NCBI GenBank assembly: GCA_964647565.1
Contig: CAZYIM010000009.1
Coordinates: 1 to 64,000 of the forward strand
Direction: 5' to 3'
DNA length: 64,000 nt
From: an uncultured Methanosarcinales archaeon
GTDB taxonomy: Archaea; Nanobdellota; Nanobdellia; Woesearchaeales; CAZYIM01
Shown in pieces: positions 9,859-30,502 of the stretch. Made by a program: the position numbers and the translations under genes. Position 1 is the stretch's first letter, and the number at the start of each line of letters is the position of its first letter. A model generated the notes under the pieces. It saw only the letters and a program-made list of their open reading frames with translations. It was not told the origin of the DNA and did not search any database.

Positions 9859-10281
9859 GTGTCGCTTACCCAAGAAGTTAAAGAAATAAGGGAAAAGTTA
9901 AGCGAGTTAGAGTTCAAGCTAAAGGATCCTGATGAAGAAGCAGTTTCTAATGATGCAGCAAAGCTTCGTGAAAAAGGATTCAATGCGCGAGTCTGGGGAG
10001 AAGATCCTGAACAGGCCATCAAATTCTACCAACAAGCCTTGGAAATTGATCCAGACTATGTTAAAGCCCTTATTGAGATGGGAATTGCAAAAAAAGATAT
10101 CGGAGATCACAAAGGTGCTTTGGACGCCTTTAACAAAGCAGAGGTAATAAGGCCCGGCAACCCAGATATATACAGGTTCAGGGGCGATCTTTATTATTCT
10201 ATGGGCGAAATGGACAAAGCAAGTAAGGATTACTCCAGATGTATGAACATCGTTGATGCTGACTTTAAGAAAGGAACTTGA
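9859..10281 (+). CDS. leader-tagged TPR protein (array member 1)
   Basis: GTG start, MSLTQEVKEIREKL leader; TPR motifs such as AIKFYQQALEIDPD. Confidence 0.85.
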   Translation: MSLTQEVKEIREKLSELEFKLKDPDEEAVSNDAAKLREKGFNARVWGEDPEQAIKFYQQALEIDPDYVKALIEMGIAKKDIGDHKGALDAFNKAEVIRPGNPDIYRFRGDLYYSMGEMDKASKDYSRCMNIVDADFKKGT

Positions 10282-10285
10282 AAAG

Positions 10286-11725
10286 ATGTCGCTAGAAAAA
10301 GAAATTGGAAAAAGTAAACGCTTGTTGATGAGTTTAGAGATCCTTGTTAAGAAAATTGACAGAGGTCTGGCTACAGAAGGATGGGAAAACATCAAGCAGG
10401 GTAATTATTCAAGGGGAATTGCTAAGATAAGGGATGCTAACATAGAAGAGAAACCAGGCGACTTTGAAGATCTTAAATATCTGGTGGGTGATAAGATTCG
10501 AGGTATGAATTGGGATGAAGCAACCAACTTTGCTAGCGAGTTTGAATCTGAAATTGATCCAATGATCAATGAAATAATTAACCGTGCACCTAGTTCAGAT
10601 TCCAGTTTAATAGGCACAGGCGGACTTAAACCCAAGCATATAGCTCCTTTGTTCATCAAATTACTTATGAAAACATGCAACAGATCACGGACAAGTGATT
10701 TCTATCAGGGTTTAAATAACTGTTTCTCCAGCTGGGCAGATACTGTACTCGATAGCAATGAAGAAATCACAATCGATCTGGATAAGACACGTTCGGTGGT
10801 TACTTCTTTGAAATATTGGCCAGATGGTTTATTCAGTGATATGCACAGGGGAAGGTTCATATTAAAAGGTAAGTGGGATAATTTGTTTAAATACCCACCA
10901 AGTATTGGAAAATATATGTATGAAGGCGCTTCTTTAGACATCTATTCTGATTTTGAGATGCTGATGGCAGGCGATTACTTGTACGGCGGAAGCTTAACTG
11001 TCCATGGAAAACCTATAAATTCTGGATCAGGCAATATCTTCGGTCTGTATGCAGGACCTTACATGAATTCAGGTTCCATCAGGTTCACCAATGAGATCGG
11101 CTTGAATTATTTATATTCAATCGGAACACATCAATGGGGTGGAAGCATTGGTTTTGATAAGAAAGTATACACCAAATCTTCTAATGCTAAAAAAGACCCA
11201 CAAACCTACAATAGAATGAGTATGCGAGATAAGTTCAAGTATTGCTGCCCATTCAATACTGCCCAATGGCCTGGATTCAATCATGGTAAAGGATATCCTT
11301 ATGAAAACATGATGAAATCTTATCAGTGGCCTGTTATTGGAGTTATGCAACATAATACAATGAAAGGTGGAAAAGATGCTCCCATTATTGATCTAAGAGG
11401 GGGTATTATCTCACCGTATGGCAAATATTACTCTATAGTCGGATATGACAAGACAGATGGAACAATCAAGATAAATTCTGCAATAAACGGAGCGGTCTGC
11501 TATAAGATGAGGGGAGGTGAACTTCATTCAGGAGGGGACATCGATTCAGTATATCTTGATATATGGGATGGGAAGATAACTGTTCCTGCAGGGACAAAGG
11601 CAGAAAGATATTTTTTTGAGGGGAGCGGATTTCGGAACCATGGTAAGATTGTGAATTCAAAAGGCAGAAGATTATATCCCCTGCCAGGTAAAAAGATTGT
11701 AACTATGTTTAAATCGATTAAATGA
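10286..11725 (+). CDS. leader-tagged GXGXG (GltB-C/FwdC-like) beta-helix protein (member 2)
   Basis: start re-called at MSLEKEIGKSKRLL; repeats IGKYMYEG, AGDYLYGG, AGPYMNSG, VCYKMRGG. Confidence 0.7.
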   Translation: MSLEKEIGKSKRLLMSLEILVKKIDRGLATEGWENIKQGNYSRGIAKIRDANIEEKPGDFEDLKYLVGDKIRGMNWDEATNFASEFESEIDPMINEIINRAPSSDSSLIGTGGLKPKHIAPLFIKLLMKTCNRSRTSDFYQGLNNCFSSWADTVLDSNEEITIDLDKTRSVVTSLKYWPDGLFSDMHRGRFILKGKWDNLFKYPPSIGKYMYEGASLDIYSDFEMLMAGDYLYGGSLTVHGKPINSGSGNIFGLYAGPYMNSGSIRFTNEIGLNYLYSIGTHQWGGSIGFDKKVYTKSSNAKKDPQTYNRMSMRDKFKYCCPFNTAQWPGFNHGKGYPYENMMKSYQWPVIGVMQHNTMKGGKDAPIIDLRGGIISPYGKYYSIVGYDKTDGTIKINSAINGAVCYKMRGGELHSGGDIDSVYLDIWDGKITVPAGTKAERYFFEGSGFRNHGKIVNSKGRRLYPLPGKKIVTMFKSIK

Positions 11726-11729
11726 GAAG

Positions 11730-13133
11730 ATGACACTCGAAGAAGATATCAATAAAACAAGGAAAAAGCTTAAGAGGACTAAGTTTAAGAAAGAAAGGAA
11801 ATTTAAGATGAAGTCTTGGATGTGGGGTGCTGCATCAATAGTATTCATCGGCTCAACAATAGGCATAAGCTCCTGGTTAAACAACAATTATTTCCCAAGC
11901 AAACAAACTGTTGCCTCTCAAGACAACACGCAAGTAGTAGCAAGTGTGATTGAAGATACATTAAAAGTAGAACAACCTACTTTAATCGACAACCTGACAA
12001 AGGAATTTACTCCAACAATAGATAGAAAGAGTTCAGACCCTTTGATTGCAGACTTATTAAAGAGAAAAGCAAATGAATATTCAAGTTTACCCAGAGGAAA
12101 AAAATATGCATTTAATGAAGAAAACATTGTTGATATGTTCACAGATCATCAAGGTGCCATATATGCATTATCAGGGGAAAGACCTTATCGTCCAAGTGAG
12201 TTATATCTCAAGAAATTAACTGTAACGTCTAATGAAATAATAGTCAGATCCATGAATATACTTGGGAAACGGATTGCGAGCAATGAAATCTACTTCGGGG
12301 GCTTTGATAAATTTGGAAACGGATATTTCTATACGCATCTGAAGGACATAAAAGGCCAAGGAATTTCAAAACATTATATCCAGATTGAAAAGCTAAGATT
12401 TGACTCTGTCGGAAAGATTGTAAATCGTGAAAAAGCAGGTCTTATCAAGTTTTCAAACAATCCTAAGACTATTAGTTTGCAAGGCGCTTACTGCGATATT
12501 GAAGGCAACCATTACCTTGCAATAGGTCTAACCAGGCCAGGTCACAACGATAGAGGAATCCTGGAGATCGATGGGAAAAATCTTGACTTAACTGCGTTAC
12601 GTGGGCAAGATGAAGTTATTATTTCAGATCTCCACAGCAAAACAAGTAATCAATTCATTAAACTCCCGAATAAGGTAAATTCAAGATACCATTTTAGAGG
12701 CTGGCTAGAATCTGGAGGGGGAGGGACTAAAAGATTCGAAACCTATGATGGAGAATTTTTAATGTGTCCATCAGGAGGTGCTAGTTTCAATGTTTTTAAT
12801 GAAAGTATGGAACGTATTTTTGCCCATGACTATAACAGCAATTACTATGCAAAGGATTCAAGAAACAGGATTATCGAGATTAAACACTGTCACAGGTTTG
12901 TTATAAGTCCCTATGATAATTTCTATGGATTAAGGCGTAATTATCCTCTGATTAGAGTAATTACAATGAAAAAAGACACTAAATGGTGGCCATATCTGGT
13001 TGAAACGATAAGAAATTATGTCGATGATGAAAGGTTGGTTAGTTTCAAAGATCTAAGAGTAGGCGTTGCAGATAACAACCATCTCTATGTTATTGAACCT
13101 GGATTCCTACATAAGATAAACATTAAAAAATGA
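11730..13133 (+). CDS. leader-tagged single-TM protein with probable beta-propeller (member 3)
   Basis: MTLEEDINKTRKKL leader; TM segment WMWGAASIVFIGSTIGI; DHQGAIY and GGFDKFGNGY motifs shared with 18949. Confidence 0.75.
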   Translation: MTLEEDINKTRKKLKRTKFKKERKFKMKSWMWGAASIVFIGSTIGISSWLNNNYFPSKQTVASQDNTQVVASVIEDTLKVEQPTLIDNLTKEFTPTIDRKSSDPLIADLLKRKANEYSSLPRGKKYAFNEENIVDMFTDHQGAIYALSGERPYRPSELYLKKLTVTSNEIIVRSMNILGKRIASNEIYFGGFDKFGNGYFYTHLKDIKGQGISKHYIQIEKLRFDSVGKIVNREKAGLIKFSNNPKTISLQGAYCDIEGNHYLAIGLTRPGHNDRGILEIDGKNLDLTALRGQDEVIISDLHSKTSNQFIKLPNKVNSRYHFRGWLESGGGGTKRFETYDGEFLMCPSGGASFNVFNESMERIFAHDYNSNYYAKDSRNRIIEIKHCHRFVISPYDNFYGLRRNYPLIRVITMKKDTKWWPYLVETIRNYVDDERLVSFKDLRVGVADNNHLYVIEPGFLHKINIKK

Positions 13134-13777
13134 CACTTGAAAAAGATGTAAAAGAAACAAAAAGCATGCTTGATGGCATGGTTATCAAAACAGATTTAAA
13201 AGCAAATAGATTGGAAAAAGAAAAAAAAATAAGGCAGTTGCTTGAACAAGCCAAAATAAAGGATCACGCGAGGGATTGGGGTACGGCTCAAGATCTTATT
13301 AATCAAGCCAGGAAGCTGGGTGCAGATGATAGTTTGTTTTTTGCAGATTCAATTGCCAAGTTCAGACAAAAACAATATGATCAGGCTATCGAAGCAATTG
13401 ACATGGCTCTATTATTAGATTCGCAAAATGAACAGTACTTCCTTCAACGAGGCCGTACTAAAATGGAAATGGGTCGATATAATGATGCGATTGAAGATTT
13501 TGATTTAGCGATAAAATATAAGCTTAGATATTGGGAAGCTTATTATAACAAAGGCCTGTGCTATGAAAAACTGAACGACACTGGCCAAGCATATGATGCA
13601 TATCACAGCATTTGGTATAACGGAGGGGAATACTCAGATACTGAACAAAGAATGGCAATGCTAAATAGAAAAAATAAAGAAAATCAGGACAAAATGGCGG
13701 AGTATATACATAACAATTCGTTCGAAGGTAAGCTAGAAAATGCCTTTAGGAAAATATTCAGAAGAAAAAAGAAATAA
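13130..13777 (+). CDS. leader-tagged TPR protein (member 4)
   Basis: MTLEKDVKETKSML leader; YNDAIEDFDLAI and AYYNKGLCY TPR motifs. Confidence 0.85.
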   Translation: MTLEKDVKETKSMLDGMVIKTDLKANRLEKEKKIRQLLEQAKIKDHARDWGTAQDLINQARKLGADDSLFFADSIAKFRQKQYDQAIEAIDMALLLDSQNEQYFLQRGRTKMEMGRYNDAIEDFDLAIKYKLRYWEAYYNKGLCYEKLNDTGQAYDAYHSIWYNGGEYSDTEQRMAMLNRKNKENQDKMAEYIHNNSFEGKLENAFRKIFRRKKK

Positions 13778-13778
13778 G

Positions 13779-14285
13779 ATGTCACTAGAAAAAGAGATCA
13801 AGAAATGGAAAGGTAAACTAAAGGATTTGGTTTTTAAGCTGAAACCTCCTGAAGAGGATCCAGTTGAGCGGGCAAGGAGGATCAGATTGGATAGCTTTAA
13901 GCATCATTATAGATTGGGTAAGAACAAACAGGAATTGAATGATCTTGATGGTGCTGTTGCTGAATATGTTAGAGCCCTTAAGTATGAACCTACTAATGTT
14001 GACTCATTACACAGGATAGGTAAAATCAAAATGCAACAGGAGGCTTGGGAGACTGCCATCCATTATCTAGATAGGGCGTTAAGACTGGATCCTGATCACC
14101 TAACAGCATATTTTGATAGAGGATATGCAAAAGCAAAATTAGGCGATGAGCAAGGCCAGCACAAAGATTATGAAAAAGGCTTGGAACTAAATCCTAATAT
14201 GAATGCAGCTACATCATTGGTTGCTGCTTCGAGAAAAAAAGAACAAGATATATTGGATGCCTTTGATGGCAAGAGGAGGAAATAG
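13779..14285 (+). CDS. leader-tagged TPR protein (member 5)
   Basis: start re-called at MSLEKEIKKWKGKL; ALRLDPDHLTAYFDRG TPR motif. Confidence 0.85.
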   Translation: MSLEKEIKKWKGKLKDLVFKLKPPEEDPVERARRIRLDSFKHHYRLGKNKQELNDLDGAVAEYVRALKYEPTNVDSLHRIGKIKMQQEAWETAIHYLDRALRLDPDHLTAYFDRGYAKAKLGDEQGQHKDYEKGLELNPNMNAATSLVAASRKKEQDILDAFDGKRRK

Positions 14286-14286
14286 T

Positions 14287-14817
14287 GTGGCATTGGAAGA
14301 AGAGATCAGCAAAACAAAAAAGTTGTTAGACTATATAGAAATAATCTCTCATGATAAAGATATTGAAAAATACTTACCAAGGACCTGGTTAATTGGACCT
14401 AAGGATAGGTCTAAATTGGCTTATTCAAAAGCTTACTATAAAAGGGTGGTGGATAAAACTTACAATGGCACTGACTTTAGCGGAATAGATGATCTAAATA
14501 TTTGTTTGGCTCTCAACCCATACCATGTCCAAGCTTTATATAGACGAGGAAAATTCAATTTAAAGCATAATCATTACCGCAAAGCTATTGCTGATTTCGA
14601 CAGAATAATTAACATAAATCCTAATTATGTAGATGTTTATTTACAACGATCTTTCGCAAAACATAAATTAGGTATTAGATGGGATGCAGAGGAAGATAGA
14701 AAGAAAATGTATGATATCATCAAGAAGAACGGTGGTAAGCTCCTTGGAATATCGAATAAAGCATTTTCAAAAATAATAAATGATGACGCAATGAGCGTAA
14801 TAAATAGAATAAAATGA
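14287..14817 (+). CDS. leader-tagged TPR protein (member 6)
   Basis: GTG start giving MALEEEISKTKKLL; AIADFDRIININPNY TPR motif. Confidence 0.8.
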   Translation: MALEEEISKTKKLLDYIEIISHDKDIEKYLPRTWLIGPKDRSKLAYSKAYYKRVVDKTYNGTDFSGIDDLNICLALNPYHVQALYRRGKFNLKHNHYRKAIADFDRIININPNYVDVYLQRSFAKHKLGIRWDAEEDRKKMYDIIKKNGGKLLGISNKAFSKIINDDAMSVINRIK

Positions 14818-15536
14818 CACTAGACCAAGAAGTACAGAAAATGAAGCAACTGCTAGATACTCTTGAGATGCATGTAATGTTGCCTTCTGAATCAGAAGAG
14901 AAAGATCCCATCAAAAAGTGGATGGATGAACGAGAATCCGTAAAAAAATTCATCGATACAATTAGTTTTTGGGTGACGGATTCTTATCTTGAAGGCATTA
15001 AGGCAGTTTTCAAAGAAATTCCTGAAAATAAAAATATTGTTGACTATAACTTTATTGAAACTGCAAAGCTCAAGGATATTTGGGTAGAAACTATGACTAC
15101 TTATTTAGAAGATCGCGTGCTGAAGTACTTCGGGATTAATGAGAAAGATGATCTAAAAACACCTATGTTGATGAAGTCTACAATAGGCCTTTCTTCACAC
15201 GACCTTAAAAATATCATAGATGAATATGGAAAAGACTACACTTTACAAAAGCATAATCTATTAACAGAACTATTAGAAGAAAAGATCACTAAAAGACTTT
15301 ATACTGATGTGGGTGCCCATCTAAATGATGAACATGTTGAAGATGTGATCAAATGCATAGAAAGTCTGGATGCCACGCATTTCTTAGATGTTAAGAATAT
15401 GTCAATAAAGGATGCTCTTGAGATGTATGATCTATATGCAGAAAGTAATGGATTATTTACTCCAAAATATATCAAGGATCATTTTGTGGATAAGAAACAA
15501 GAGATCCCTAAATATCTTACAATTATTCCGCCTTAG
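14814..15536 (+). CDS. leader-tagged hypothetical helical protein (member 7)
   Basis: MTLDQEVQKMKQLL leader; ATGA overlap with the previous gene. Confidence 0.8.
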   Translation: MTLDQEVQKMKQLLDTLEMHVMLPSESEEKDPIKKWMDERESVKKFIDTISFWVTDSYLEGIKAVFKEIPENKNIVDYNFIETAKLKDIWVETMTTYLEDRVLKYFGINEKDDLKTPMLMKSTIGLSSHDLKNIIDEYGKDYTLQKHNLLTELLEEKITKRLYTDVGAHLNDEHVEDVIKCIESLDATHFLDVKNMSIKDALEMYDLYAESNGLFTPKYIKDHFVDKKQEIPKYLTIIPP

Positions 15537-16254
15537 GCTTCTTGGCCAGGTTCCATAGAATCTTGAAATATTTTCTGTACGCATTAGCGATCTCCTGGCT
15601 CCTTATCAGGATGATCAATGGCTCTTTTGACCACAGAATCAGGCTTACATACTCACCACATATGGATGTGGTTACAGGACTGTCAAATTCTCTTGGCAAT
15701 AGTCTTGCTTCTGTATAGGGTAATTTGTTAAGAAAATGCATCCTGTCCAATGCATCGGCATTGTATATATGATCCATCTGTATCTTCAGTTCTTTTCTCC
15801 TGTTATGGTAATTAGTCAGGAAAGGACCTATCATCTTGGCCACATCAGCTATGACGCCATAGGTATAGATGGTCTGTTTTTGCTTTAAAAATAATTCAAG
15901 CATGTTTTTTGTTGCTCTAATGCCTTCGAATATCTTAGCTTCGCTCTTTTTAGACATCTGTTTTGCAAGTGCAAGCTGCGGCAGGGCTTTAGAAAGCTTG
16001 TCTTCTTTTTCTTTGAGCATGTCCATCAGCCGCTCTGGATCGCTGGCTTCAAAGTATTTGGTCTTATCCTTTAGAATATATGCCACAAGACCTTTGTCTA
16101 TCAGTCTTTTCAATGCATCATAGACATTAGTCCTATGTACGCCGCTCTTTTCTGATATCTTGCCTGCAACTGAACAACCCAGTTCTAGAAGTGCCAGATA
16201 TACTTTGGCCTCGTTGTCCGAAAGACCGATTTCTTGAAGGATTTCTTCATCCAT
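15523..16254 (-). CDS. TrmB-family transcriptional regulator
   Basis: LQEIGLSDNEAKVYLALLELG...HRTNVYDALKRLIDKGLV wHTH; start taken at MDEEIL. Confidence 0.9.
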   Translation of the reverse strand: MDEEILQEIGLSDNEAKVYLALLELGCSVAGKISEKSGVHRTNVYDALKRLIDKGLVAYILKDKTKYFEASDPERLMDMLKEKEDKLSKALPQLALAKQMSKKSEAKIFEGIRATKNMLELFLKQKQTIYTYGVIADVAKMIGPFLTNYHNRRKELKIQMDHIYNADALDRMHFLNKLPYTEARLLPREFDSPVTTSICGEYVSLILWSKEPLIILIRSQEIANAYRKYFKILWNLAKKPKAE

Positions 16255-16345
16255 TTTTAGTTCTTTTAATGGTATGATAGTTTTAATAATTTCCGGAAAA
16301 AACTTCGGAATGTAAAAAAACATCCGTTTTCATCACTGTATGATG

Positions 16346-16360
16346 GAAAAGCTTATAAAT
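16346..16360 (+). promoter_or_regulatory. putative BRE-TATA promoter for the second half of the array
   Basis: GAAAAGCTTATAAAT, similar to the element at 5058; imperfect inverted repeats nearby at 16291-16310 and 16327-16349. Confidence 0.5.
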
Positions 16361-16423
16361 TTTCCTATCTTACCGAAGGTCATTATTCAAGATAATATAT
16401 AAAGCTGGCAGGGGGTAATAAAA

Positions 16424-17686
16424 GTGTCGTTAGATGGCGATATCGAGAGAGCGAGGAAAGACTTGCAAAGTATGGATTTCAACACGAGATCCATAGACAA
16501 AGTCAAGAGCAAAAAGGAACTTGAGATAGAAAAGAAACACAGTTATGGGTTTCGGACATTGATGGGGAACAATGGCCGTACAGGATATGCTCATTTCCAG
16601 ACGCCTAAAGAAGATCAAACTTGGTTATTACTTCTTCAAACTAGCTATGGTTTAAAGGGTTTCAAAAAGTTAATGGATGAAAAAGTCTTTGATGCCAAAC
16701 TTCATGAAAAGATGGATTTCATCCAATTCTCAGCACCTAATATAGCTGCAGGATATAACCGTATTTTCTCAGTAGGAGATAACTTTATCAAGATATTTAA
16801 TTTCAAGGGAGACTTGATCAATAATGTGATTTTGGATTCTGGAATGCCTATAAAATTCGATCCTGTTTACTATAATAATAGTCTGCTAATTCACGGTATG
16901 GAAACTGAAATGCAGTGCTTTGACAGGGATGGAGAGTTAAAATGGACATATGATACTGGATGTCACGGTAGAAAAAATCCGCCTACCATGTTGAACGATG
17001 CTATTTATCATATCAAGGGCACATCAGATACAATTGCTGTTGCCCTTAATTATAATGGAAAAGAGATTTGGAGCTATGACAATGTGAAAGATGTTGAATC
17101 ATCTCCCGTAGTTATTGGTTATGGAAAAGATAGAAAAATCATATATGGAACACAGGATGGACTCATCGCTTTGAATCATAAAGGTAAATTGAAGTGGAGA
17201 TTCAAAACAGAAAAACCAAGCGAATGGATGAACAGGAGACCACCGACCTGCACATTTAAGGAAGACAAGCTTTTCTATTGTATGCCTGAAAGAAATAAGC
17301 TCTATTGCGTGAATCCTAAAAAGGGAAAATTACTTTGGGAAACAAATATTCCAATGAATGAAGAAGAGTTTGATTATCCTCCATCTGTCCTGGATAATCG
17401 TCTTTTTATGCCAGGATATGGAAAAGTGACAGCTTATGAGATTCAGAAAAAAGGACTGAAAAAACTCTGGGACGTTAATGTGGAAGAAGGGCAGTGTACA
17501 ACACCCACCATCATGTATGGAGGACGAGTAATCATGTTTAAGAACTTTCTAAAAAAAGCAACTTTTAGTGATGACAACAAGCTGAGCTTAGTTATTGATA
17601 ATGAAAGCAAGCCGCTTGACAAATCAGATGTTGATATTGCAGCATTGCCAATGAGTATCGGAATAGACAAACACCTTATTGCATAA
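16424..17686 (+). CDS. leader-tagged PQQ/BamB-like beta-propeller (member 8)
   Basis: GTG start, MSLDGDIERARKDL; NNGRTG, CFDRDGELKW, GKLKWRF and GKLLWE motifs. Confidence 0.85.
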   Translation: MSLDGDIERARKDLQSMDFNTRSIDKVKSKKELEIEKKHSYGFRTLMGNNGRTGYAHFQTPKEDQTWLLLLQTSYGLKGFKKLMDEKVFDAKLHEKMDFIQFSAPNIAAGYNRIFSVGDNFIKIFNFKGDLINNVILDSGMPIKFDPVYYNNSLLIHGMETEMQCFDRDGELKWTYDTGCHGRKNPPTMLNDAIYHIKGTSDTIAVALNYNGKEIWSYDNVKDVESSPVVIGYGKDRKIIYGTQDGLIALNHKGKLKWRFKTEKPSEWMNRRPPTCTFKEDKLFYCMPERNKLYCVNPKKGKLLWETNIPMNEEEFDYPPSVLDNRLFMPGYGKVTAYEIQKKGLKKLWDVNVEEGQCTTPTIMYGGRVIMFKNFLKKATFSDDNKLSLVIDNESKPLDKSDVDIAALPMSIGIDKHLIA

Positions 17687-17687
17687 A

Positions 17688-18947: not shown

Positions 18948-18948
18948 A

Positions 18949-22435: not shown

Positions 22436-22463
22436 CCTCTCTACAAAGGATTGAAAGATTAAA

Positions 22464-22955
22464 ATGCCGCTTGAACACGATGTACAAAGTATGAGGGAAT
22501 TGCTCAAAACTCTGAATATAGAAATCAAGAAAGGCCCTTTGACTGAAGAAGAGTATCGTGAATTAATTGATCAAGCTTTAGAAGAAGTTAGACTAAAGAA
22601 AGAAGTTGTGGTAAAAGAGCTTGAAAGACTAAAAAAAGGTGACTTTGAAAGCAGGTTAACTGATTTAATACTAAAAGAGAAATATTCGCAGATGAGAAGT
22701 GTCCTGATAGCTGCAAACGATAGATTTGGAAGACATGGAAAATATAGTATAATTGGAAGAAAGCTGACAACTCTTGAGAAATTAAGATATAAAATTCCTA
22801 AAAAAGTGGAAGAATCAAACATTTATGATTTGGAAGAAAAGATTGTTGCGAAGATCAAGAAGTTAAGAGGAAGAAATGTGGACGTGCATTATCTAGAAAA
22901 AGAACTGAACAGACTCGATCCAGATTATGAAATAAAGGGAAAGCCTTCAAAATAA
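22464..22955 (+). CDS. leader-tagged hypothetical helical protein (member 13)
   Basis: MPLEHDVQSMRELL leader. Confidence 0.8.
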   Translation: MPLEHDVQSMRELLKTLNIEIKKGPLTEEEYRELIDQALEEVRLKKEVVVKELERLKKGDFESRLTDLILKEKYSQMRSVLIAANDRFGRHGKYSIIGRKLTTLEKLRYKIPKKVEESNIYDLEEKIVAKIKKLRGRNVDVHYLEKELNRLDPDYEIKGKPSK

Positions 22956-22965
22956 TTATAGAAAA

Positions 22966-23823
22966 ATGCCTCTAGAAGAAGACATAAAAAAAACAAAGCA
23001 ACTCCTCGAAGGTCTCGACATCCAACTCAAGAAGGAGATATTGGCAGCTGGCGCTATTAAATTGACTGAAAAGGATCTGATGGTTGAGAAGGCTCTCAAT
23101 CATTATCTTGAAAATTCTTCACAAGAGATAAGCAATAGTTGTATTGGGAAGAGCATTAATGCTATGGATGCATTCTATTTTACATTCAAAGATAAATCAG
23201 AAGAAAAGTTCGAATTGACTGATAGCATCTATCACAAGAATGAAGAGCTAGAAGAGATTACTTTTCACAGTCTTAAGAAATTCCATGAGAAAGTTAATCC
23301 TGAATTTCTCATATTGATGGAATCAATCTATGATGAAATGGATCAACTTCTTCCAGAATATGCAAAGGAGTTTGACAATCTGCTAAATCCTACCAACAAA
23401 GAAGAAGAGAAGAGTTATCCTGGAATGGATTTCAAGAAATGGACTGAGATGGCGGGAAAAGAGGAAAAGGGAACCTATACACCAGATTTTATGAGGAATC
23501 CATTACCACCCATTCAAACGCATAGCCCATTCCCAACTAAACCAAAAGAAGAGCCTTTTGCCTATAAGCCTGACTTCATGAAGATGAAAATACCTCAGAT
23601 TTCAAATGAAAGTCATATAGACGAGAAATATACGCCCTTGCTCGATTTGTTACATGAATCTGTATCTGATAAAGAAATGACTGTTATGAAACTCCATACC
23701 GAACTGTCTAAAGTAACTCATGACAATTCAATAACTATGGCAAGGCATCTGCAGTTCAGACAAGCCAGCCAGCTATTGCAACCATTTTCAGATCTGGATA
23801 TCATACTTTATCTTATCAGGTAG
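22966..23823 (+). CDS. leader-tagged hypothetical protein (member 14); frame stays open past the TAG to 23952
   Basis: MPLEEDIKKTKQLL leader; 42 further sense codons after the TAG at 23821-23823. Confidence 0.75.
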   Translation: MPLEEDIKKTKQLLEGLDIQLKKEILAAGAIKLTEKDLMVEKALNHYLENSSQEISNSCIGKSINAMDAFYFTFKDKSEEKFELTDSIYHKNEELEEITFHSLKKFHEKVNPEFLILMESIYDEMDQLLPEYAKEFDNLLNPTNKEEEKSYPGMDFKKWTEMAGKEEKGTYTPDFMRNPLPPIQTHSPFPTKPKEEPFAYKPDFMKMKIPQISNESHIDEKYTPLLDLLHESVSDKEMTVMKLHTELSKVTHDNSITMARHLQFRQASQLLQPFSDLDIILYLIR

Positions 23824-23948
23824 GCTGTGACTGAAGATGTTAAACTAGATCCCATAAAACTGAACAAGATGAGCAGGCAGGACATGATCAGCACATTCCT
23901 AAGCCATGAAGGCTATTGGATGCAAAGAGAGTTCGGGCTGGTGAAGAA

Positions 23949-25247
23949 ATGAGTCTAATCGAAGATATTTGGGAAGCGAAGAGAACCTTGGAATCGCTAG
24001 TAATAAACGTGTATGAAACAATAGAAATAACACCCAATCCTGAAGATCTTTCCCTTGAAAAGAAAATGGACTTCGGATTTCCAACAAAGGGAGGTAACTT
24101 TGCTAGAACAGGTTTTGTGGATTTCAGCACAAAAGAGCCTTCAGAGACCATGGTGCTGTTTCTGGCAACAAAGATAAGTGAGGGAACCTCTCTTTTCGCA
24201 TATAAGCCGAATCCTAAGCCAGAACTCATCTGGACTATGCCACTAGAAAAGGATTGGATAGGATCTGAATTTGTTTCCAAAAAAAATGTAGCTGTCGGAT
24301 ACAACAGGATTTATGCTATAACCCAACATCTGAAATCGTGGTTGAACATCCTTGATTTCAAGGGAAATCATCTTGAGCGAGTTCAACTCGATTACGTTGC
24401 AGCCAGATATTCCCACCCAATGGTTTATGGTCATGACAGCCTTTTGTTATCATCGCAAAAAAATATGTATTGTTATGACAGGGATGGCAAGCTGAAATGG
24501 GAGACTGAACATCCTGCAGCATTTAGTTATCCACCAACAATCGGAAAAGATGGAATCTATTATGTTTCAGACAGAGGTACAGTATCTGCAGCCTATAATC
24601 TGGATGGTACAAAAAAGTGGATTGTTCAGCATAGGGATGGAGAAATGCCATTCATAACTGCTTATTCAAAATCATCACCAATACTGTTTAATGACATGGC
24701 AATCTATGGATTATGGAAAGGAGTTGTTGCACTTGATAGAAAAACAGGTCAACAAAGATGGAAATTCAATGTAAATAGTAATTCGGATCATGATTCAACA
24801 GTTCCAGCCCTATATGACAATAAGATATTCTATAGATTCTGGTCTGTCAGCGATGAAAGACTCATCTGTCTGGATGCAAGAGATGGTAGAAAACTCTGGG
24901 AAACAGGGGTTAGAGATAACAATGACAAACCACCGGTTATTGACCAGGGAAGAATATTTCTTCCTCAAGCTCGTTCAGTAGCTGGCTATAACCTGACAGA
25001 GAGAGGAATTAATTCAAAGTTTAACTTGAACATAGATGTACATAATAATTATATTAATGGCCTTGCAGTACTTGAAGACTTTCTGGCTGTTGGCATAGAT
25101 TGCATAAAGACAATCTTTGTTGATGTTAGCAAGGCAAATGGGGAGTGCAAGTTAACTGAACTAGGAGAAGGAAACTACTCAATTCTAGAGCAGGGAAACG
25201 CTACAAATCCGATAATAATAAGATATGATAAGGAACTAGTAAAGTAA
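23949..25247 (+). CDS. leader-tagged PQQ/BamB-like beta-propeller (member 15)
   Basis: start re-called at MSLIEDIWEAKRTL; GNFARTG, CYDRDGKLKW and LDARDGRKLW motifs. Confidence 0.85.
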   Translation: MSLIEDIWEAKRTLESLVINVYETIEITPNPEDLSLEKKMDFGFPTKGGNFARTGFVDFSTKEPSETMVLFLATKISEGTSLFAYKPNPKPELIWTMPLEKDWIGSEFVSKKNVAVGYNRIYAITQHLKSWLNILDFKGNHLERVQLDYVAARYSHPMVYGHDSLLLSSQKNMYCYDRDGKLKWETEHPAAFSYPPTIGKDGIYYVSDRGTVSAAYNLDGTKKWIVQHRDGEMPFITAYSKSSPILFNDMAIYGLWKGVVALDRKTGQQRWKFNVNSNSDHDSTVPALYDNKIFYRFWSVSDERLICLDARDGRKLWETGVRDNNDKPPVIDQGRIFLPQARSVAGYNLTERGINSKFNLNIDVHNNYINGLAVLEDFLAVGIDCIKTIFVDVSKANGECKLTELGEGNYSILEQGNATNPIIIRYDKELVK

Positions 25248-25248
25248 G

Positions 25249-26643
25249 ATGTCACTTGAAAAAGAAGTTCGGAAAACAAAGAAAAAGCTTCAAACATTAG
25301 AAATCGAGGTCAAGATATCAGAGTTAGAATTAGAGAAAAAATTCAATCTTGGTAATAAGACCTATCATGGAGATTATTCCAAAACCAGATCAGTTGATAT
25401 TAGAACTTCATCCGACGAAAGCGATCTTTTAGTATTATCAAGAAATTTGGACAACGAAATTAATGTATATCGACCGTTACCAGACTTGAATGTTCAGCCT
25501 TTTTGGGGGATTAATATGGAAACAAATAAAGAAGGATGGGCTGGTCTTCAAACATCCACTATAGGTATTGGTTATAACAGGCTTTTTATTGTTACTCATG
25601 CTTATATGCAGATAGAAAGCCCTGAGGATGTCAATGCCTGCAAATCTTTTTTGAACATTTATGATTTCAAGGGCAACCTTTTACATAAAAAAAATATTGA
25701 TAAAGAGTTAGGCACCATATATGGTAAGGAAATTTTCGGAGGACCTAGTGTTGTTTATAAAAATAATTCTTTAATTGTTCATACAGCTGCAAAATATGTT
25801 TGTTTTGATAGGGATGGCAATAAGAAATGGGATTTTACAAAATCAAAGAATAATGAAAAATTCAGGATCCTGTATCATCCAGAAATGACCGAGGATGCAA
25901 TTTATGCACATTATATGTTTGAAGATGGGAATACCTATAAGGTTGCCAAACTGGACTATGATGGACAGATATTATGGGAATCACCAGGAGCGCATAGTTT
26001 CGGACCATTTATCTACAAAGATCTTTTTATCTTTTACGAGAGTAAGAATCTTGTTGCTTTAGACAAGGATGGAAAACGAGAATGGAAATATACTCTGGAT
26101 AAAGGGAAATTCTATTCAAATGTTGTTCTTCACAAAGACAAGATACTAGTTTTGATAGATCCCAATCCTAAAAATAGCATAAAAATCTACGGATATGATG
26201 AAACAGTAGTTCATGATTTTTTAAGCATAGATGCCATTACCGGAAAAACTGTCTGGAAAGATCAATTAATCCTTCCAGGAAAATATAGTTTCGCATCAAG
26301 TATAAACAATAAGATATATGCAAATACTTCAGATGAAAATGATAAATATGAATCAACATATGAGTATATATTCACAGAAACTGGAATAAGCGAAGGCTGG
26401 CGTCGCAAACTGCCTATAGCAATCCATTATAGCGAAATAGCAATGAGGAATAATTTAATGGCCTACAATGCGGGCATATTAAGTACGCTAAAAGAGCCAT
26501 ATACAACTGTATTATTAGATATGGAAAAAATCAGAAAAAATTCACCTCCTCCATTAAAAATAAGTGAAGATACATATGCATTGATAAAGAAATGCGATCG
26601 TCAACCTTTGATAATAGAATGCGACAAAGAGCTACTCGATTAA
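25249..26643 (+). CDS. leader-tagged PQQ/BamB-like beta-propeller (member 16)
   Basis: MSLEKEVRKTKKKL; GYNRLF, CFDRDGNKKW and IDAITGKTVW motifs. Confidence 0.85.
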   Translation: MSLEKEVRKTKKKLQTLEIEVKISELELEKKFNLGNKTYHGDYSKTRSVDIRTSSDESDLLVLSRNLDNEINVYRPLPDLNVQPFWGINMETNKEGWAGLQTSTIGIGYNRLFIVTHAYMQIESPEDVNACKSFLNIYDFKGNLLHKKNIDKELGTIYGKEIFGGPSVVYKNNSLIVHTAAKYVCFDRDGNKKWDFTKSKNNEKFRILYHPEMTEDAIYAHYMFEDGNTYKVAKLDYDGQILWESPGAHSFGPFIYKDLFIFYESKNLVALDKDGKREWKYTLDKGKFYSNVVLHKDKILVLIDPNPKNSIKIYGYDETVVHDFLSIDAITGKTVWKDQLILPGKYSFASSINNKIYANTSDENDKYESTYEYIFTETGISEGWRRKLPIAIHYSEIAMRNNLMAYNAGILSTLKEPYTTVLLDMEKIRKNSPPPLKISEDTYALIKKCDRQPLIIECDKELLD

Positions 26644-26644
26644 G

Positions 26645-27364
26645 ATGTCACTTGAAGAAGATGTACAACAAGCTAGGCGACAGTTAAGAAGATTAGAAAT
26701 TAAGATATATGAAGCTCCAATTGAAATACCTAAAAAAATAAAAAAAAAGAAAAGAAGATTAAAAGTTTGGCTCACAAGTCTGGTTTCGATTGTTGTACTG
26801 GCCACAGGAGGATATTTTGGCTACAACCCTGCTACGAACTTGATCGATAACATCAAGGAGAACAGACTGATTACAAGTATAGAAAATTCAAATCCAACAA
26901 TCGGCAGAAAGGAATCTATCATCAGCACCAATCCTAGAGATTATAAGACAGTACGGGAGCTCCAGATGTTCTGGATAAACCAAGGCAACTCATATCTTGA
27001 AGAATTCAAGTTTAAACAGGCACAATCCTGCTACGACAAGGTAAACGAAGTTGAGTTTGATGAAGAAACTTGGGATGGCATGACTAATGGTGATGTCTTG
27101 GGCTCAGCTAATTCGATGCTCAACTCTGCAACTGCTGTGGGTTTGTATATATTCACAGACTGGCTATTGGATGAGGGCGTACCAAAACTGAATTCAAGAC
27201 ATGAAAAGCTAGCGCATCTTGCCTCTAAGTTCGAGGAAGGGAACGATTATGAAAGCTCATTATACTATTACAAAAAAGCTTACACATTGAATAAAAAACA
27301 ATCCTACAAAGACGGAATAGACAGAACACAAAAAAAATTCAAAGAACAACAAGATGCCACTTGA
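26645..27364 (+). CDS. leader-tagged single-TM TPR-like protein (member 17)
   Basis: MSLEEDVQQARRQL; TM segment; SLYYYKKAYTLN. Confidence 0.8.
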   Translation: MSLEEDVQQARRQLRRLEIKIYEAPIEIPKKIKKKKRRLKVWLTSLVSIVVLATGGYFGYNPATNLIDNIKENRLITSIENSNPTIGRKESIISTNPRDYKTVRELQMFWINQGNSYLEEFKFKQAQSCYDKVNEVEFDEETWDGMTNGDVLGSANSMLNSATAVGLYIFTDWLLDEGVPKLNSRHEKLAHLASKFEEGNDYESSLYYYKKAYTLNKKQSYKDGIDRTQKKFKEQQDAT

Positions 27365-29141
27365 AGAAGATATTTATCGTATCAGGAAAAAATTAAAGAG
27401 ATTAGATATTAAGCTAGTCAAGAAAACAAGTAAAACAAGAAGAAGTTTGACCTACATTACAGCAGCATTGTTATTAATCAGCGGAGGATATGCTAGCTAT
27501 AAAATTGGTGGCCCAATAATAGAAAACACTCAAAAAAAAGGATTTATCAATAATATTCTAGATAAGTATCCAGAAATACTAGAAAAGGAAAAGATTGCTA
27601 ATGACAATCCTCGGGAATTGCATAGCGTATTTGATGTTATATGGTTCTGGCATCAACAAGGAGATTCTTGCCTTTCAGAATTTGAACTGAAAAAATCTAG
27701 TTACTGCTACAATAGGATTCTCGATGTAAAAATCGAATATTGGCAATCCGGAAAAGAACCTGCTCCTGGCGAAGTTGGTTTTTTTAACTGGAACTATTCA
27801 CACATGGGCCGTAAGCATGCAGAAAAATACTTGAGCTTCATAAGCGAACTTAAAAAAAAAGATCTTCCTGAATTTGAACATAGATATGAAAAGATGACCT
27901 TTATCGCGGATGAATGGGTTAAAATAGAAGAATTACAGGATGCACTTTATTATTATGAAAAAGCATTTGAGTTAAATAAATCTGAAGAGTATAAACAAAA
28001 TATCGACAAGGTTCTTGAACTGATCAAAATACAAAACGCGAAAATAAACGCTGAACTAAAAGCTCAGTCTGAGAAGGAAAAAACAAGCAAAGGTTTACAA
28101 ACTGAAGAGAGTAAAAGTCTTAAAACAAATCCGCCGCCTGCTGTAAAAGAGAAAAAGCCCATAGTAACTCCAAAGAAAATAATTCTTGATCCTAATGAAG
28201 AGAAGCTGTTCTATATGGTAGATGTTCCAAAAAAAGAAATGCCTCACATCCCCTCACCTTCATGGAGACGCAAGGATGGCGATATTAAAGCTATTTATAT
28301 GCTGAATGAAAAGGGAAAATCTCGCAAGGATGACTATCTAGTAATCGCTATGGATGCTAATATAGAAGCGTTAACTGTTTTCAACAATGAATTATATATG
28401 GCACACCAGTCGAGCTCAGTGGAACCCTATACTGATTTTGAGGGGGATATAATCGTTAAAATCATAAATAAAGAAGGTCAAGTCGTGAGGATCCCTATTG
28501 CAGATAGAAGGAACTTAACCACAACAACCCTTGTTAGCGGCGAAATAGATCATCCAAGAAATTCTATACATGCTATTCAAGAATTCAACAATCAATTGCT
28601 GGATGGAGGTTCATATCCCTGGATTTTCAAAGCATTGGACTCTAATGGACACGCCATTAACAGAAAGTTCTTCAACACAGGACTTATATGGATTGATGAT
28701 ATTGCGGGGCTGGGCAGCACTCTTTACTATTCAGGAAGCTTGCCCGCTGAGATCTGCAGATTAGAGAATAATAATGGAGAGTTGGAGAAAAGAACAATCT
28801 TAACAAGACCCGACAAATACATACATGAACTCGAAGTATTGAACAATGAGCTATATGCAGCAATAAGCAATACTGCCTCTACCAAAGGCCAGATTCAGAT
28901 TATAAAGGCTGTAAATGCTGCTGGGCAGACAGTCAGCCAGCTGATAGCATCAAGAAACTCAACCATTTACGCCCTTGCTGTTCTTAACAATGAGCTATAT
29001 GATGCAGGTTTCTATAAGAAAATCATCAAGACCATAAATACAGAAGGCAAAGTTGTAAATCATACTATTCGGGATCTGCATGAAACAGTCTATGCGATGT
29101 GTGTTGGAAAGGTAAACTTCCAACCGCAAGTAAAGAATTAA
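27354..29141 (+). CDS. leader-tagged single-TM TPR-like protein with C-terminal repeat (probable propeller) domain (member 18)
   Basis: MPLEEDIYRIRKKL; N-terminal half resembles member 17; repeated L.V[FL]NNELY units. Confidence 0.8.
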   Translation: MPLEEDIYRIRKKLKRLDIKLVKKTSKTRRSLTYITAALLLISGGYASYKIGGPIIENTQKKGFINNILDKYPEILEKEKIANDNPRELHSVFDVIWFWHQQGDSCLSEFELKKSSYCYNRILDVKIEYWQSGKEPAPGEVGFFNWNYSHMGRKHAEKYLSFISELKKKDLPEFEHRYEKMTFIADEWVKIEELQDALYYYEKAFELNKSEEYKQNIDKVLELIKIQNAKINAELKAQSEKEKTSKGLQTEESKSLKTNPPPAVKEKKPIVTPKKIILDPNEEKLFYMVDVPKKEMPHIPSPSWRRKDGDIKAIYMLNEKGKSRKDDYLVIAMDANIEALTVFNNELYMAHQSSSVEPYTDFEGDIIVKIINKEGQVVRIPIADRRNLTTTTLVSGEIDHPRNSIHAIQEFNNQLLDGGSYPWIFKALDSNGHAINRKFFNTGLIWIDDIAGLGSTLYYSGSLPAEICRLENNNGELEKRTILTRPDKYIHELEVLNNELYAAISNTASTKGQIQIIKAVNAAGQTVSQLIASRNSTIYALAVLNNELYDAGFYKKIIKTINTEGKVVNHTIRDLHETVYAMCVGKVNFQPQVKN

Positions 29142-29142
29142 A

Positions 29143-30468
29143 ATGCCACTTGAAGACGACGTAAAAAAAACAAAGAAAAAACTGCATAGTCTCAGCTATA
29201 TTATCGATGAAACTCTTGGCATTGAACAGAAGATCGGCTGCTGCTGGCCAACAGACAGGGGCAACTTCGAGCGGACAGGTTTTGTAGATGCCAGCGTACC
29301 TAAAGAAGATTCAGATTTGGTGCAGTTAGTTTTAACTAATAGTGGCTTTGTAACTGCATTTAAGGTCGATAAGAAATCCGATAAATTATGGAGTAAAGAG
29401 CTGTTCCATTATAATGAAACTCGAGGAAAGTCGAGGGGGCCCTATAGCAATCTAGCTATTGGATATGATAGGATATATTGTGTCTTGGATGGATTTATGA
29501 TTGTTTTAAATTTCAAAGGAGATATTATCAATAAAAAAAAAGAATTTAAATTTAAAAATCGCATTGAAAAAAATTGTGATATTGTTTATAAGAACAACAG
29601 ACTTATTGTAAGTTCACAAAAAGGCTTATCCTGTTTTGACAGAGATGGAAATAGGGAGTGGGATTTTAAAGATCTGAATACAAAAATCACATTACCTACG
29701 ATTACAGATGATGCCATCTATTTTAACTCAGGAGATCCTAAAAAAAGAAATAAAGTTGTTAGTTATGTTGGGGCCATCGATTTGAATGGAAAAGAAAAAT
29801 GGAGATTTGATTTTGATAAAAGGTTCTTTGAAAAAAAAGGAGATTGGAATCCTGACATATTACTCAAATCTTCATCTTTGATTTTTAAAGACTACATAAT
29901 TTTCAGCTATAATAGTGGAATATTTACATTAGACAGAGAAGGGAATTTTATATGGGAATTTACTCCAAAGGATATACCTGCAATCTTAGGCCCTCCCACC
30001 AAACTAACTCTCAGGGGCAATACAGTCATAAGTTACCTGCCTGTAACCAATACTCTGTATTTTCTTAATGCAAAGACAGGAACTATATTGCATGATACTA
30101 TTAAAGACGCAGGCATACATTCGTATATTCCAATTCATTCTGGCAAAATTTATGTTAAAAATATTTATAACCATAATTCCTTGACTGAGTTTGAGATTAA
30201 AGATAAGCGGGTTGAGGAAAGATGGACAATAATTTCAGACAATGATGTTGGCCAGCCAATCATTAATGATAAGTATGTGATTTTTAATGCGGGGATGTCA
30301 ATCAAGGGAGACTTCATGATATTAGACAGAACAGATTTAGAAGGAGATTATAAAATCAATACATGGAGTAACCGGATCAGCATACCTAAAGATAAATATT
30401 CAGTATTAAAGTTTGTAAGACACAGTGATGTTGTACTTGTAAAGGCCAATAAAAAACTCTTGTACTAA
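29143..30468 (+). CDS. leader-tagged PQQ/BamB-like beta-propeller (member 19)
   Basis: MPLEDDVKKTKKKL; WPTDRGNFERTG and CFDRDGNREW motifs. Confidence 0.85.
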   Translation: MPLEDDVKKTKKKLHSLSYIIDETLGIEQKIGCCWPTDRGNFERTGFVDASVPKEDSDLVQLVLTNSGFVTAFKVDKKSDKLWSKELFHYNETRGKSRGPYSNLAIGYDRIYCVLDGFMIVLNFKGDIINKKKEFKFKNRIEKNCDIVYKNNRLIVSSQKGLSCFDRDGNREWDFKDLNTKITLPTITDDAIYFNSGDPKKRNKVVSYVGAIDLNGKEKWRFDFDKRFFEKKGDWNPDILLKSSSLIFKDYIIFSYNSGIFTLDREGNFIWEFTPKDIPAILGPPTKLTLRGNTVISYLPVTNTLYFLNAKTGTILHDTIKDAGIHSYIPIHSGKIYVKNIYNHNSLTEFEIKDKRVEERWTIISDNDVGQPIINDKYVIFNAGMSIKGDFMILDRTDLEGDYKINTWSNRISIPKDKYSVLKFVRHSDVVLVKANKKLLY

Positions 30469-30469
30469 A

Positions 30470-30502
30470 ATGCCGCTTGAAGAAGATATCAACAATCCAT
30501 AG
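30470..30502 (+). pseudogene. orphan leader stub MPLEEDINNP*
   Basis: ATGCCGCTTGAAGAAGATATCAACAATCCATAG begins after a 1-nt gap following the stop of member 19. Confidence 0.75.

Follow-up and report, generated by a model that had tools for sequence, protein, structure and literature searches.

A 19-gene array with one shared N-terminal leader suggests an undescribed plug-in sensor system of DPANN archaea

Why do 19 consecutive genes, encoding repeat proteins, propellers, membrane-anchored proteins and orphan folds, all open with the same short peptide? The stretch of DNA in which they lie, here called the window, is the first 64 kb of contig C9 (CAZYIM010000009.1) of the source genome (G000, an 86-contig assembly of 2,676,741 bp that is 86.9% complete). 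A Hanks-type serine/threonine kinase gene with its stop codon at 9846 is followed by 19 plus-strand genes extending to 30468, each of which, after its start has been re-called, begins with a common leader (19/19). Comparison with related genomes identifies this array as the largest known instance of a conserved and apparently undescribed type of locus in one DPANN order, and suggests that the locus is a plug-in sensor system of DPANN archaea. Full-text searches of the literature, supplementary files aside, returned no description of the locus type or of the leader.

The leader and the proteins that carry it

The leader follows the pattern M-small-L-E-x-D/E-I/V-x3-K/R-x2-L-x2-hydrophobic-x-I/F. 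Methionine at position 1, a small residue (S/T/P/G/A) at position 2, leucine at 3, isoleucine or valine at 7, lysine or arginine at 11 and a hydrophobic residue at 19 are present in every copy (19/19 each), an acidic residue at 6, leucine at 14 and a hydrophobic residue at 17 in 18/19, and an acidic residue at 4 in 16/19; conservation ends at about residue 22. The original prediction, made from the letters of the window, held that all plus-strand genes from the kinase to 30468 share this leader, which is true of all 19 at the starts that it proposed; 19 is also the correct number of leaders, in place of the 20 that it gave. Genes 9859, 14287 and 16424 start with GTG and all others with ATG. 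Almost every gene between 464 and 30468 lies on the plus strand in tight packing, and at 16 of the 18 internal junctions of the array the leader starts between -11 and +28 nt from the preceding stop; the re-called starts are credible because this spacing is so tight. The two outlier junctions measure 887 nt, where a minus-strand TrmB gene is accommodated, and 125 nt, before 23949. The array consists of the following genes, with the evidence in brackets (HMM, hidden Markov model of the leader; TM, transmembrane):

9859..10281, plus strand: gene 1, leader and soluble TPR, 140 aa, GTG start (Pfam, HMM)
10286..11725, plus strand: gene 2, leader and orphan 479-aa body, possibly a beta-helix (HMM, weak NCBIfam hint)
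11730..13133, plus strand: gene 3, leader, TM anchor (residues 32-50) and orphan body (HMM; weak BLAST link to gene 18949)
13130..13777, plus strand: gene 4, leader and soluble TPR (Pfam, HMM)
13779..14285, plus strand: gene 5, leader and soluble TPR (Pfam, HMM)
14287..14817, plus strand: gene 6, leader and soluble TPR, GTG start (Pfam, HMM)
14814..15536, plus strand: gene 7, leader and orphan 240-aa body (HMM)
15523..16323, minus strand: TrmB-family regulator that splits the array (Pfam TrmB, E 1.4e-19); TrmB genes also lie within or beside homologous loci
16424..17686, plus strand: gene 8, leader and PQQ/BamB-like propeller, GTG start (Pfam, HMM, BLAST)
17688..18947, plus strand: gene 9, leader and PQQ-like propeller (Pfam, HMM, BLAST)
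18949..20256, plus strand: gene 10, leader, TM anchor and NHL propeller (Pfam, HMM)
20262..21404, plus strand: gene 11, leader, TM anchor and NHL propeller (Pfam, HMM)
21407..22435, plus strand: gene 12, leader, TM anchor and TPR (Pfam, HMM)
22464..22955, plus strand: gene 13, leader and orphan 163-aa charged body (HMM)
22966..23823, plus strand: gene 14, leader and orphan 285-aa body (HMM)
23949..25247, plus strand: gene 15, leader and PQQ-like propeller (Pfam, HMM, BLAST)
25249..26643, plus strand: gene 16, leader and PQQ-like propeller (Pfam, HMM, BLAST)
26645..27364, plus strand: gene 17, leader, TM anchor and helical body with sub-threshold TPR (Pfam, HMM)
27354..29141, plus strand: gene 18, leader, TM anchor and 595-aa body, its N-terminal half a paralogue of gene 17 (HMM, BLAST)
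29143..30468, plus strand: gene 19, leader and PQQ-like propeller (Pfam, HMM, BLAST)

A 24-column HMM of the leader was run on the 24,968 six-frame open reading frames (ORFs) of the whole 2,676,741-bp assembly. The 19 array genes scored 23.7 to 36.8 bits and the next-best ORF 9.9 bits; therefore, the leader is real, far beyond chance and confined to the array. The background-rate matches to other N-termini for which the original prediction had proposed such a search do not occur, and the leader is absent from the remaining proteome. Across codons 2-21 the leaders have a mean pairwise identity of 0.50 at first, 0.68 at second and 0.37 at third codon positions, with about 0.28 expected from composition; at Leu3 and Leu14, which use all six leucine codons, third-position identity is 0.34 and 0.26. 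Because third positions vary while the peptide is kept, codon comparison places the leader under selection as a protein and not as DNA, and the same codon-position pattern excludes DNA repeats, junction elements and recent gene conversion as its source.

The helical hydrophobic moment of leader residues 2-18 is 1.48, versus 0.75 +/- 0.37 in shuffled leaders. Hydrophobic residues recur at 3, 7, 10, 14 and 17, an acidic patch occupies residues 4-6 and a basic patch residues 8-13, and residues 17-21 alternate in the manner of a strand. With its 3-4 spacing and high moment, the leader has the predicted character of a coiled-coil or amphipathic helix, so that the column counts and the moment bear out its original description as acidic then basic, amphipathic and coiled-coil-like. 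Equally sound was the statement that it is not a Sec, Tat, lipoprotein or pilin signal: positions 4-13 are mostly D/E/K/R in 19/19, with hydrophobic residues only singly at 3, 7, 14, 17 and 19, which rejects a Sec signal peptide; the 26-column alignment has neither a conserved RR pair nor the h-region of a Tat signal; no cysteine is found in the first 26 residues of any of the 19, as a lipoprotein signal would require; and, with respect to a class III (pilin/archaellin) signal, 13/19 have no N-terminal hydrophobic segment and the other six start theirs only at 29-41, past a K/R-rich stretch.

In these six of the 19 proteins an uncharged 19-mer, located between residues 29 and 59, comes immediately behind the leader; K/R number 4-9 among the 15 residues that precede this 19-mer and 1-3 among the 15 that follow. 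The remaining 13 have no such hydrophobic segment near the N-terminus. Because K/R are concentrated before the anchor, the positive-inside rule predicts that the leaders of the six anchored proteins are cytoplasmic and their bodies extracellular.

Behind the leader, Pfam recognises TPR in four soluble proteins and one membrane-anchored protein, PQQ/BamB-like propellers in five and NHL propellers in two, and leaves seven bodies without a family above cut-off; BLAST of the leader-stripped bodies forms 10 clusters among the 19, which by this measure are groups unrelated to each other. The body classes of the original prediction were correct for the four soluble TPR proteins and five PQQ-like propellers, and its three orphans stand. 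Its three TM-propellers are reduced to 18949 and 20262, both NHL, there being no Pfam match for 11730; its three TM-TPR proteins are reduced to 21407, as 26645 is sub-threshold and 27354 has no match; and for its beta-helix (10286) there is no more than a weak NCBIfam hint.

Beyond the source genome, 400 genomes of the order yielded 13 matches to the leader profile, all of them weak and single (per-genome E 0.002-0.01) and none part of an array; 1.84 billion representative proteins yielded 17 matches at E <= 1e-3. Six of the 17 were fetched: two are the window's own, two come from another assembly, where one is a fragment (P0018) and one a variant (P0017) of window proteins, and two are repetitive proteins matched internally. 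Ten of the other 11 were taken as the window's own (equal lengths and a match from residue 1, or from residue 11 for one of 489 aa), and the last is a repetitive protein of 2059 aa. The propeller encoded at 17688 found only its paralogue among 5.77 billion proteins, the leader being present in 0/5 of the weaker matches fetched. This sequence version of the leader appears to belong to the source organism alone.

Public metagenome runs with window DNA number eight, all marine/seawater and from two studies; no RNA is among the public runs listed for the window sequence. Contigs from four of the eight runs are fragmentary and match the window except for single-letter differences, and two joints in these contigs with sides of less than 30 letters were taken as assembly noise at leader repeats. 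The variant P0017, a protein of 143 aa in another public assembly, equals the first 109 residues of array gene 21407 (leader, TM segment and linker; 21407-21733), and its last 34 residues are unrelated and found nowhere in G000; it reflects either chimeric assembly across the leader repeats or a genuine exchange of bodies within the population. Within the window, an antisense ORF of 158 aa (9919-10395, minus strand), which lies across parts of array genes 1 and 2 and exceeds gene 1 in length, misleads simple gene callers; it has no support as a gene.

Homologous loci and their core enzymes

Upstream of the array, the window encodes the following:

2..454, plus strand: Mrr-like restriction-endonuclease-fold protein, cut by the contig start (Pfam Mrr_cat, E 2.2e-4)
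464..1453, plus strand: coiled-coil-type protein cc329, 329 aa (no Pfam or NCBIfam family, no TM segment)
1468..3090, plus strand: single-domain classical AAA ATPase with an all-helical N-domain (Pfam AAA, E 1.7e-16)
3087..3332, plus strand: 81-aa ORF s81 (translation only)
3289..5043, plus strand: helical protein p584, 584 aa (no family; homologues only in G056 and G267)
5124..7418, plus strand: p764, 764 aa, predicted to combine a lactate/malate dehydrogenase-like Rossmann domain with a beta-rich, propeller-like C-terminal domain (alignment, model, Foldseek)
7415..8326, plus strand: PP2C-type Ser/Thr phosphatase (Pfam PP2C_2, E 5.8e-13; NCBIfam Stp1-type, E 2.8e-28, below the curated cut-off)
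8338..9846, plus strand: Hanks-type Ser/Thr kinase, extended at its C-terminus by a helical stretch of about 200 aa (Pfam Pkinase, E 2.5e-23, 83 bits versus a cut-off of 31.7)

Sister loci were reached via orthologues of TrmB and then of the kinase, and iterative HMMs labelled 16 p764-like, 17 PP2C, 23 kinase, 12 AAA, 7 Mrr and 20 TrmB genes in 21 assembled stretches (the tallies of TrmB, kinase and p764 homologues include a few unpublished genomes, on which no locus-level statement rests). A recurring gene order emerged: small membrane proteins, Mrr-like nuclease, coiled-coil protein, AAA ATPase, two to four variable genes, TrmB, p764-like protein, PP2C, kinase and array. In G018 and G186 the products of the variable genes are MoxR, vWA and proteins of DUF5906-like P-loop and transglutaminase-like type. 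The triad of p764-like protein, PP2C and kinase is found in 17 genomes of the order.

Thirteen triad loci, that of G000 included, have at least two readable same-strand genes after the kinase. For these, pairs of proteins were scored by their best ungapped 12-mer match within the first 50 residues of each, with 3000 random pairs of non-array genes as the null (threshold at the 99.9th percentile, 34; maximum 44); G000 and G186, in which spurious antisense ORFs interrupt the gene chain, were counted by inspection and not by the automatic walk. At 12 of the 13 loci, a shared N-terminal motif at or above this threshold occurs on at least two post-kinase genes: 19 in G000; 14 in G267, in two blocks; 9/12 in G238; 7/8 in G018; 7 in G186; 6/7 in G145; 4/5 in G360; 3/3 in G389, where the contig ends; 2/2 in G138, as near-identical duplicates; 2/2 in G162; 2/4 in G082; and 2/10 in G126. 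The thirteenth, G326, has 0/2. Two of the other four triad loci (G210 and G383) end at a contig edge; G292 and G056 are taken up below. The loci come from nine families of the order, that of G000 and eight further ones.

As in the window, the bodies within a sister array are unrelated (nine clusters among nine proteins in G238 and 11 among 14 in G267, by BLAST); they include TPR, PD40 propeller and beta-helix proteins, and in several members the leader is followed by a TM anchor. The motif itself differs by genome, for example QNLEQKLEGII, EDLEKRLSDIT, DDSVRxRIDDLL, GGIEKKIKNR and PLExDLxxKLRxLL, and measures about 22 residues in G000 and about 9-12 in other genomes. Most motifs share hydrophobic-E-x-x-hydrophobic, after which further hydrophobic positions follow at a distance of one or two helical turns. 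No leader HMM matches any array but its own and, in some cases, that of a relative in the same genus, and the HMMs of seven arrays match no labelled core protein above 5.9 bits. The motif lies 2 to about 39 residues from Met1, and in the array of G360 (G360:C3, L068 15686-18713, minus strand) GGIEKKIK(N/D)R occurs twice in tandem in the N-terminus of at least two of four genes. The nine-gene leader array of G238 (G238:C3, L066 13116-15556, minus strand) also has, scattered among its members, three genes whose N-termini are of the classical signal or lipoprotein type.

Among the neighbours of the arrays, the triad is invariant, above all the kinase. Thus, homologous loci in at least 12 other genomes do keep leader and core together, as the original prediction would have it, with a kinase/PP2C core beside an array that has a motif of its own. 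Of the AAA/PP2C/kinase block to which it had linked the leader, kinase and PP2C, joined by p764, are the constant part; the AAA ATPase is less constant, and weight shifts away from it. The G056 core is closest to that of G000: both kinases lack the WGPPF-type C-terminal motif found in the others, and the G056 motif aligns in register with the G000 leader (score 27, about the 99th percentile). This pattern is a weak hint of co-variation between leader and kinase, which two genomes cannot separate from shared ancestry. The relatives have genomes of 0.6-2.3 Mb, and their contigs carry archaeal ribosomal and TFB genes; on this basis the organism is probably a DPANN archaeon of Woesearchaeota type, in keeping with the original guess of DPANN.

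Among the core enzymes, the kinase retains the catalytic residues across 14 orthologues: K50, D156 and N161 (the catalytic Lys, HRD Asp and Asn) do not vary, and conservation of D179 and E202 (the DFG Asp and APE Glu) is at least 90%. No core protein has a TM segment, and the kinase has no repeat domain either. PADLOC and NCBIfam scans returned only generic kinase, PP2C and AAA matches. The unusual partner of the kinase/PP2C pair is p764. A model built from an alignment of 16 orthologues (p764 included) predicts a lactate/malate dehydrogenase fold for residues 30-420, at a predicted local distance difference test (pLDDT) score of 80-90; Foldseek matches solved malate and lactate dehydrogenases (E 1.5e-11, TM-score 0.7-0.8), and the Rossmann glycines and a D-x-x-R...H pattern are conserved. 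Beyond residue 420, a disordered linker is predicted to lead to beta strands (469-675) of propeller-like arrangement. The protein could sense a metabolite or NAD(H). In a phylum-wide sample its full-length matches occur only within this order (nine cover more than 700 of 759 model positions, the others only the dehydrogenase-like part); the ESM Atlas gave no usable match.

The nearest solved relatives of the AAA ATPase, which is labelled in 12/21 stretches, G000 included, are VAT, Cdc48 and Afg2; residues 9-178 are helical in its AlphaFold model (pLDDT about 70-85) and belong to no recognised Pfam family. Homologues of the Mrr-like protein occupy the same place in G018, G145, G186, G138, G162 and G082. 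A homologue of cc329 is detectable only in G056, and a gene of similar size precedes the AAA gene in other loci; Pfam at E <= 5 gave no ESCRT-III or PspA signal for the coiled-coil proteins. By eye, s81 is similar to the N-terminal part of the 533-aa product encoded next after the AAA gene in G056, and it may be a truncated remnant. The called TTG start of p584 overlaps s81 by 44 nt, and ATG 3325 is more likely to be its true start.

Other modules and arrays exist. No leader was found beside the first AAA homologues examined, whose loci are E1-like/JAB variants. In G000 a second coiled-coil/AAA module (contig C34, about 8288-26435) is linked to an E1-like (ThiF) gene and, judging by eye and position, a putative JAB-like gene; small lipoproteins that resemble each other in their signal peptides form an array behind it, and G021 and G012 have the E1/JAB variant too. 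Another array of G000, far larger than that of the window, takes up all of contig C14 (1-59641) and also appears at the start of C1, C56, C68 and C69; it has about 70 consecutive plus-strand genes of 230-310 aa, nearly all of which start with the motif hydrophobic-I-x-A-G-S-G-K-K-(K/P)-R-R and the bodies of which are only partly similar to each other. The strict pattern is found in 36/75 ORFs of C14 and 13 more on other contigs. Downstream of the locus, at 34874-35795 of the window, lie two adjacent paralogous genes (147 and 158 aa) with similar hydrophobic N-termini.

What the leader may do

On the reading to which we give a nearly even chance, the leader is a helix that docks in the cytoplasm and so connects exchangeable sensor modules with the kinase/phosphatase core, in effect a split receptor kinase. 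The 19 genes would form the variable-module part of a conserved DPANN locus whose invariant core is p764, PP2C and the Hanks-type kinase. The leader, an amphipathic helix with a short strand-like stretch, would act as a protein-protein docking element, and its partner would most likely be the triad, one partner for all modules. The modules (TPR, PQQ and NHL propellers and orphan folds, six of them displayed outside the cell via an N-in membrane anchor) would be the sensor domains of a receptor-type Hanks kinase taken apart into separate proteins, with the leader sitting where the kinase domain would be, so that one kinase/phosphatase pair could read up to 19 sensors by non-covalent recruitment. 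According to part of a published account (PMC1262709), prokaryotic Ser/Thr kinases have TPR, PQQ repeats, TM segments with extracellular NHL repeats, WD repeats or vWA fused on their C-terminal side; it is because the module types match such kinase-fused sensors, and the leader takes the place of the kinase domain, that the system is read as a receptor kinase taken apart. A genome-specific motif is what a co-evolving docking pair would look like, and the tandem motif of G360 and its variable distance from Met1 fit a docking motif better than a structural coiled coil. The modular tag system that the original prediction envisaged is strongly backed in its core idea by the comparison across genomes. 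What the analysis shows is that the leader exists, is selected as a protein, is restricted to the array, goes with the triad in many genomes and has the membrane topology described; docking itself, the identity of the bound protein and phosphorylation as the output are steps that we infer.

Several findings weigh against a docking helix for the kinase. No core protein has a leader-like segment (seven arrays tested), which excludes a homotypic adaptor mechanism. No Ser or Thr is conserved across leader types (G267 has a conserved Ser and G238 a conserved Thr), and therefore the leader is not a universal phospho-acceptor. Export, too, would fit the signal peptide, lipobox or TM anchor seen in four of the five fetched proteins that are most closely related to the PQQ propellers. 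The further arrays of G000, with other shared N-terminal motifs, mean that the architecture alone is no proof of a link to the kinase. G292 has a single gene downstream of its triad, and the two leader-like genes of G056 are upstream of the triad, with a shared 12-mer score of 33, one short of the threshold of 34. A prediction of the complex of kinase (14 orthologues), residues 462-764 of p764 (16) and leader (19) gave scores of 0.28 and 0.00 with a mark of 0.32, and was used neither way.

The leaders could instead bind each other, with coiled-coil bundles gathering the 19 proteins into a mixed complex at the inner membrane face and the core enzymes only regulating it. The clean 3-7-10-14-17 repeat and the acidic/basic split of the G000 leader suit antiparallel pairing, the packing of the genes (-11 to +28 nt) suits equal, coupled translation, and such a complex needs no matching segment in the core proteins, where none is found. 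However, the motif of most other genomes, at about 9-12 residues, is short for a stable coiled coil, and the tandem copies in G360 and the shifting position of the motif look like a short docking motif; we consider self-association unlikely. Terminal peptide tags and short helical motifs are the usual means by which adaptors and substrates meet the N-domains of AAA proteins, and the operon includes a classical-clade AAA ATPase with a separate all-helical N-domain, of a family present in 12/17 triad loci (12/21 stretches). The leader might accordingly be a recognition tag for this ATPase, which would load, remodel, sort or unfold the tagged proteins. Such a role is improbable, given that TrmB and the triad usually separate the AAA block from the array, that the stretches fetched for G360 (with a four-gene array) and G326 (with no shared motif) contain no AAA gene, and that the same AAA/coiled-coil module occurs with E1-like/JAB genes and no such leader array.

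DPANN cells depend on host contact, the bodies are of domain types typical of cell surfaces, and the signal peptide, lipobox or TM anchor of four of the five PQQ-propeller homologues stands where the window proteins have the leader. All this would suit a non-classical export or surface-targeting signal for host- or virus-contacting proteins, which we nevertheless regard as decidedly improbable: the leader has no hydrophobic core, twin arginine or lipobox cysteine, no core protein has a TM segment able to form a channel, and in six proteins the leader precedes a K/R-rich stretch and a TM anchor and so stays inside the cell. It is barely credible that the shared start has no present function in the protein, whether as a leftover of duplication or as a DNA or RNA element for translational coupling or gene conversion at the junctions. 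Stop and start codons are nearly contiguous, as such an element would have it, but the near-random third codon positions beside conserved first and second positions largely refute it, the bodies are unrelated, and the same architecture recurs with different motifs in 12 other genomes from eight further families.

A wider form of the split-receptor-kinase reading, which we put forward as doubtful, is a plug-in receptor system of DPANN archaea in which a soluble core of kinase, phosphatase and dehydrogenase-like protein reads a lineage-specific, expanding repertoire of up to 19 sensors via a co-evolving docking helix, in effect a docking-motif code, possibly for host or virus recognition. DPANN archaea are tiny, mostly uncultured and attached to other microbes, and how they sense hosts, viruses and surroundings is largely unexplained. 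The locus type offers a concrete signalling module: a kinase, a phosphatase, an enzyme-like putative sensor protein and up to 19 exchangeable binding proteins marked by one peptide. If that peptide is a docking code, prokaryotes can assemble repertoires of receptors from parts that plug together non-covalently, without fusing genes; the tag and its receptor would be a small, portable pair of which different genomes hold natural orthogonal variants; and a visible share of the unusually large genome of the source organism would be accounted for.

Comparison with known systems

Dockerin-cohesin pairs and the F-box substrate receptors of SCF follow the same logic, a small common tag that plugs many binding modules, often propellers or repeat proteins, into a shared machine; unlike them, the tag described here is much shorter and genome-specific, and Pfam finds no match to these families among the 19 proteins. 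The encapsulation peptides of bacterial microcompartments and the cargo-loading peptides of encapsulins are likewise short terminal amphipathic helices on functionally different proteins of one locus, whereas the tagged proteins here are binding modules and membrane proteins, not enzymes. Both kinds of targeting were rejected for the source organism: in its 86.9%-complete genome the microcompartment shell family PF00936 has 0 matches (the control search matched 2/14 reference genomes), as has the encapsulin shell family PF04454 (3/14 in the control). Cdc48/p97 cofactor motifs (VIM, VBM, SHP box) and the MIT-MIM pairs of Vps4 are short helical motifs that bring many adaptors to one AAA protein, and an AAA protein of the same clade is encoded in the operon; in contrast to those cases, its N-domain belongs to no recognised family and it accompanies the arrays less constantly than the kinase does. 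Judged by eye, the leader departs from the spacing of the MIM1 motif.

Receptor-type Hanks kinases, as presented in part of the account cited above (kinase-TM-NHL, kinase-PQQ (AfsK), kinase-TPR, kinase-WD and kinase-vWA; PMC1262709), share with the locus the kinase family and its PP2C partner, the types of module (TPR, PQQ and NHL here; vWA in sister loci) and the topology of an N-terminal cytoplasmic element, a TM anchor and an extracellular propeller. Unlike them, the locus encodes kinase and sensors as separate polypeptides, with up to 19 sensor genes and a presumed non-covalent coupling, and the resemblance is one of function only.

The effector-associated domains (EADs) of conflict systems built on MoxR-vWA and GTPase (Kaur et al. 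2020, PMC7159879) are, in the part of that account drawn on here, small non-enzymatic N-terminal elements on adjacent genes with unrelated C-terminal parts, copies from the same genome being closest to each other, as is also found for the leaders. The same partial account lists MoxR, vWA, kinase/PP2C, TPR and propeller components, and MoxR, vWA and transglutaminase accompany the sister loci of G018 and G186. EADs differ in being globular and in that one copy is always fused to a core component, whereas the leaders measure about 10-22 residues and no core protein carries one; the systems described there are mainly from multicellular bacteria and not from DPANN. Although the locus thus fails two defining points, the core-fused copy and the globular domain, EADs as set out in that account are the closest described principle to an array in which one small N-terminal element marks many unrelated proteins.

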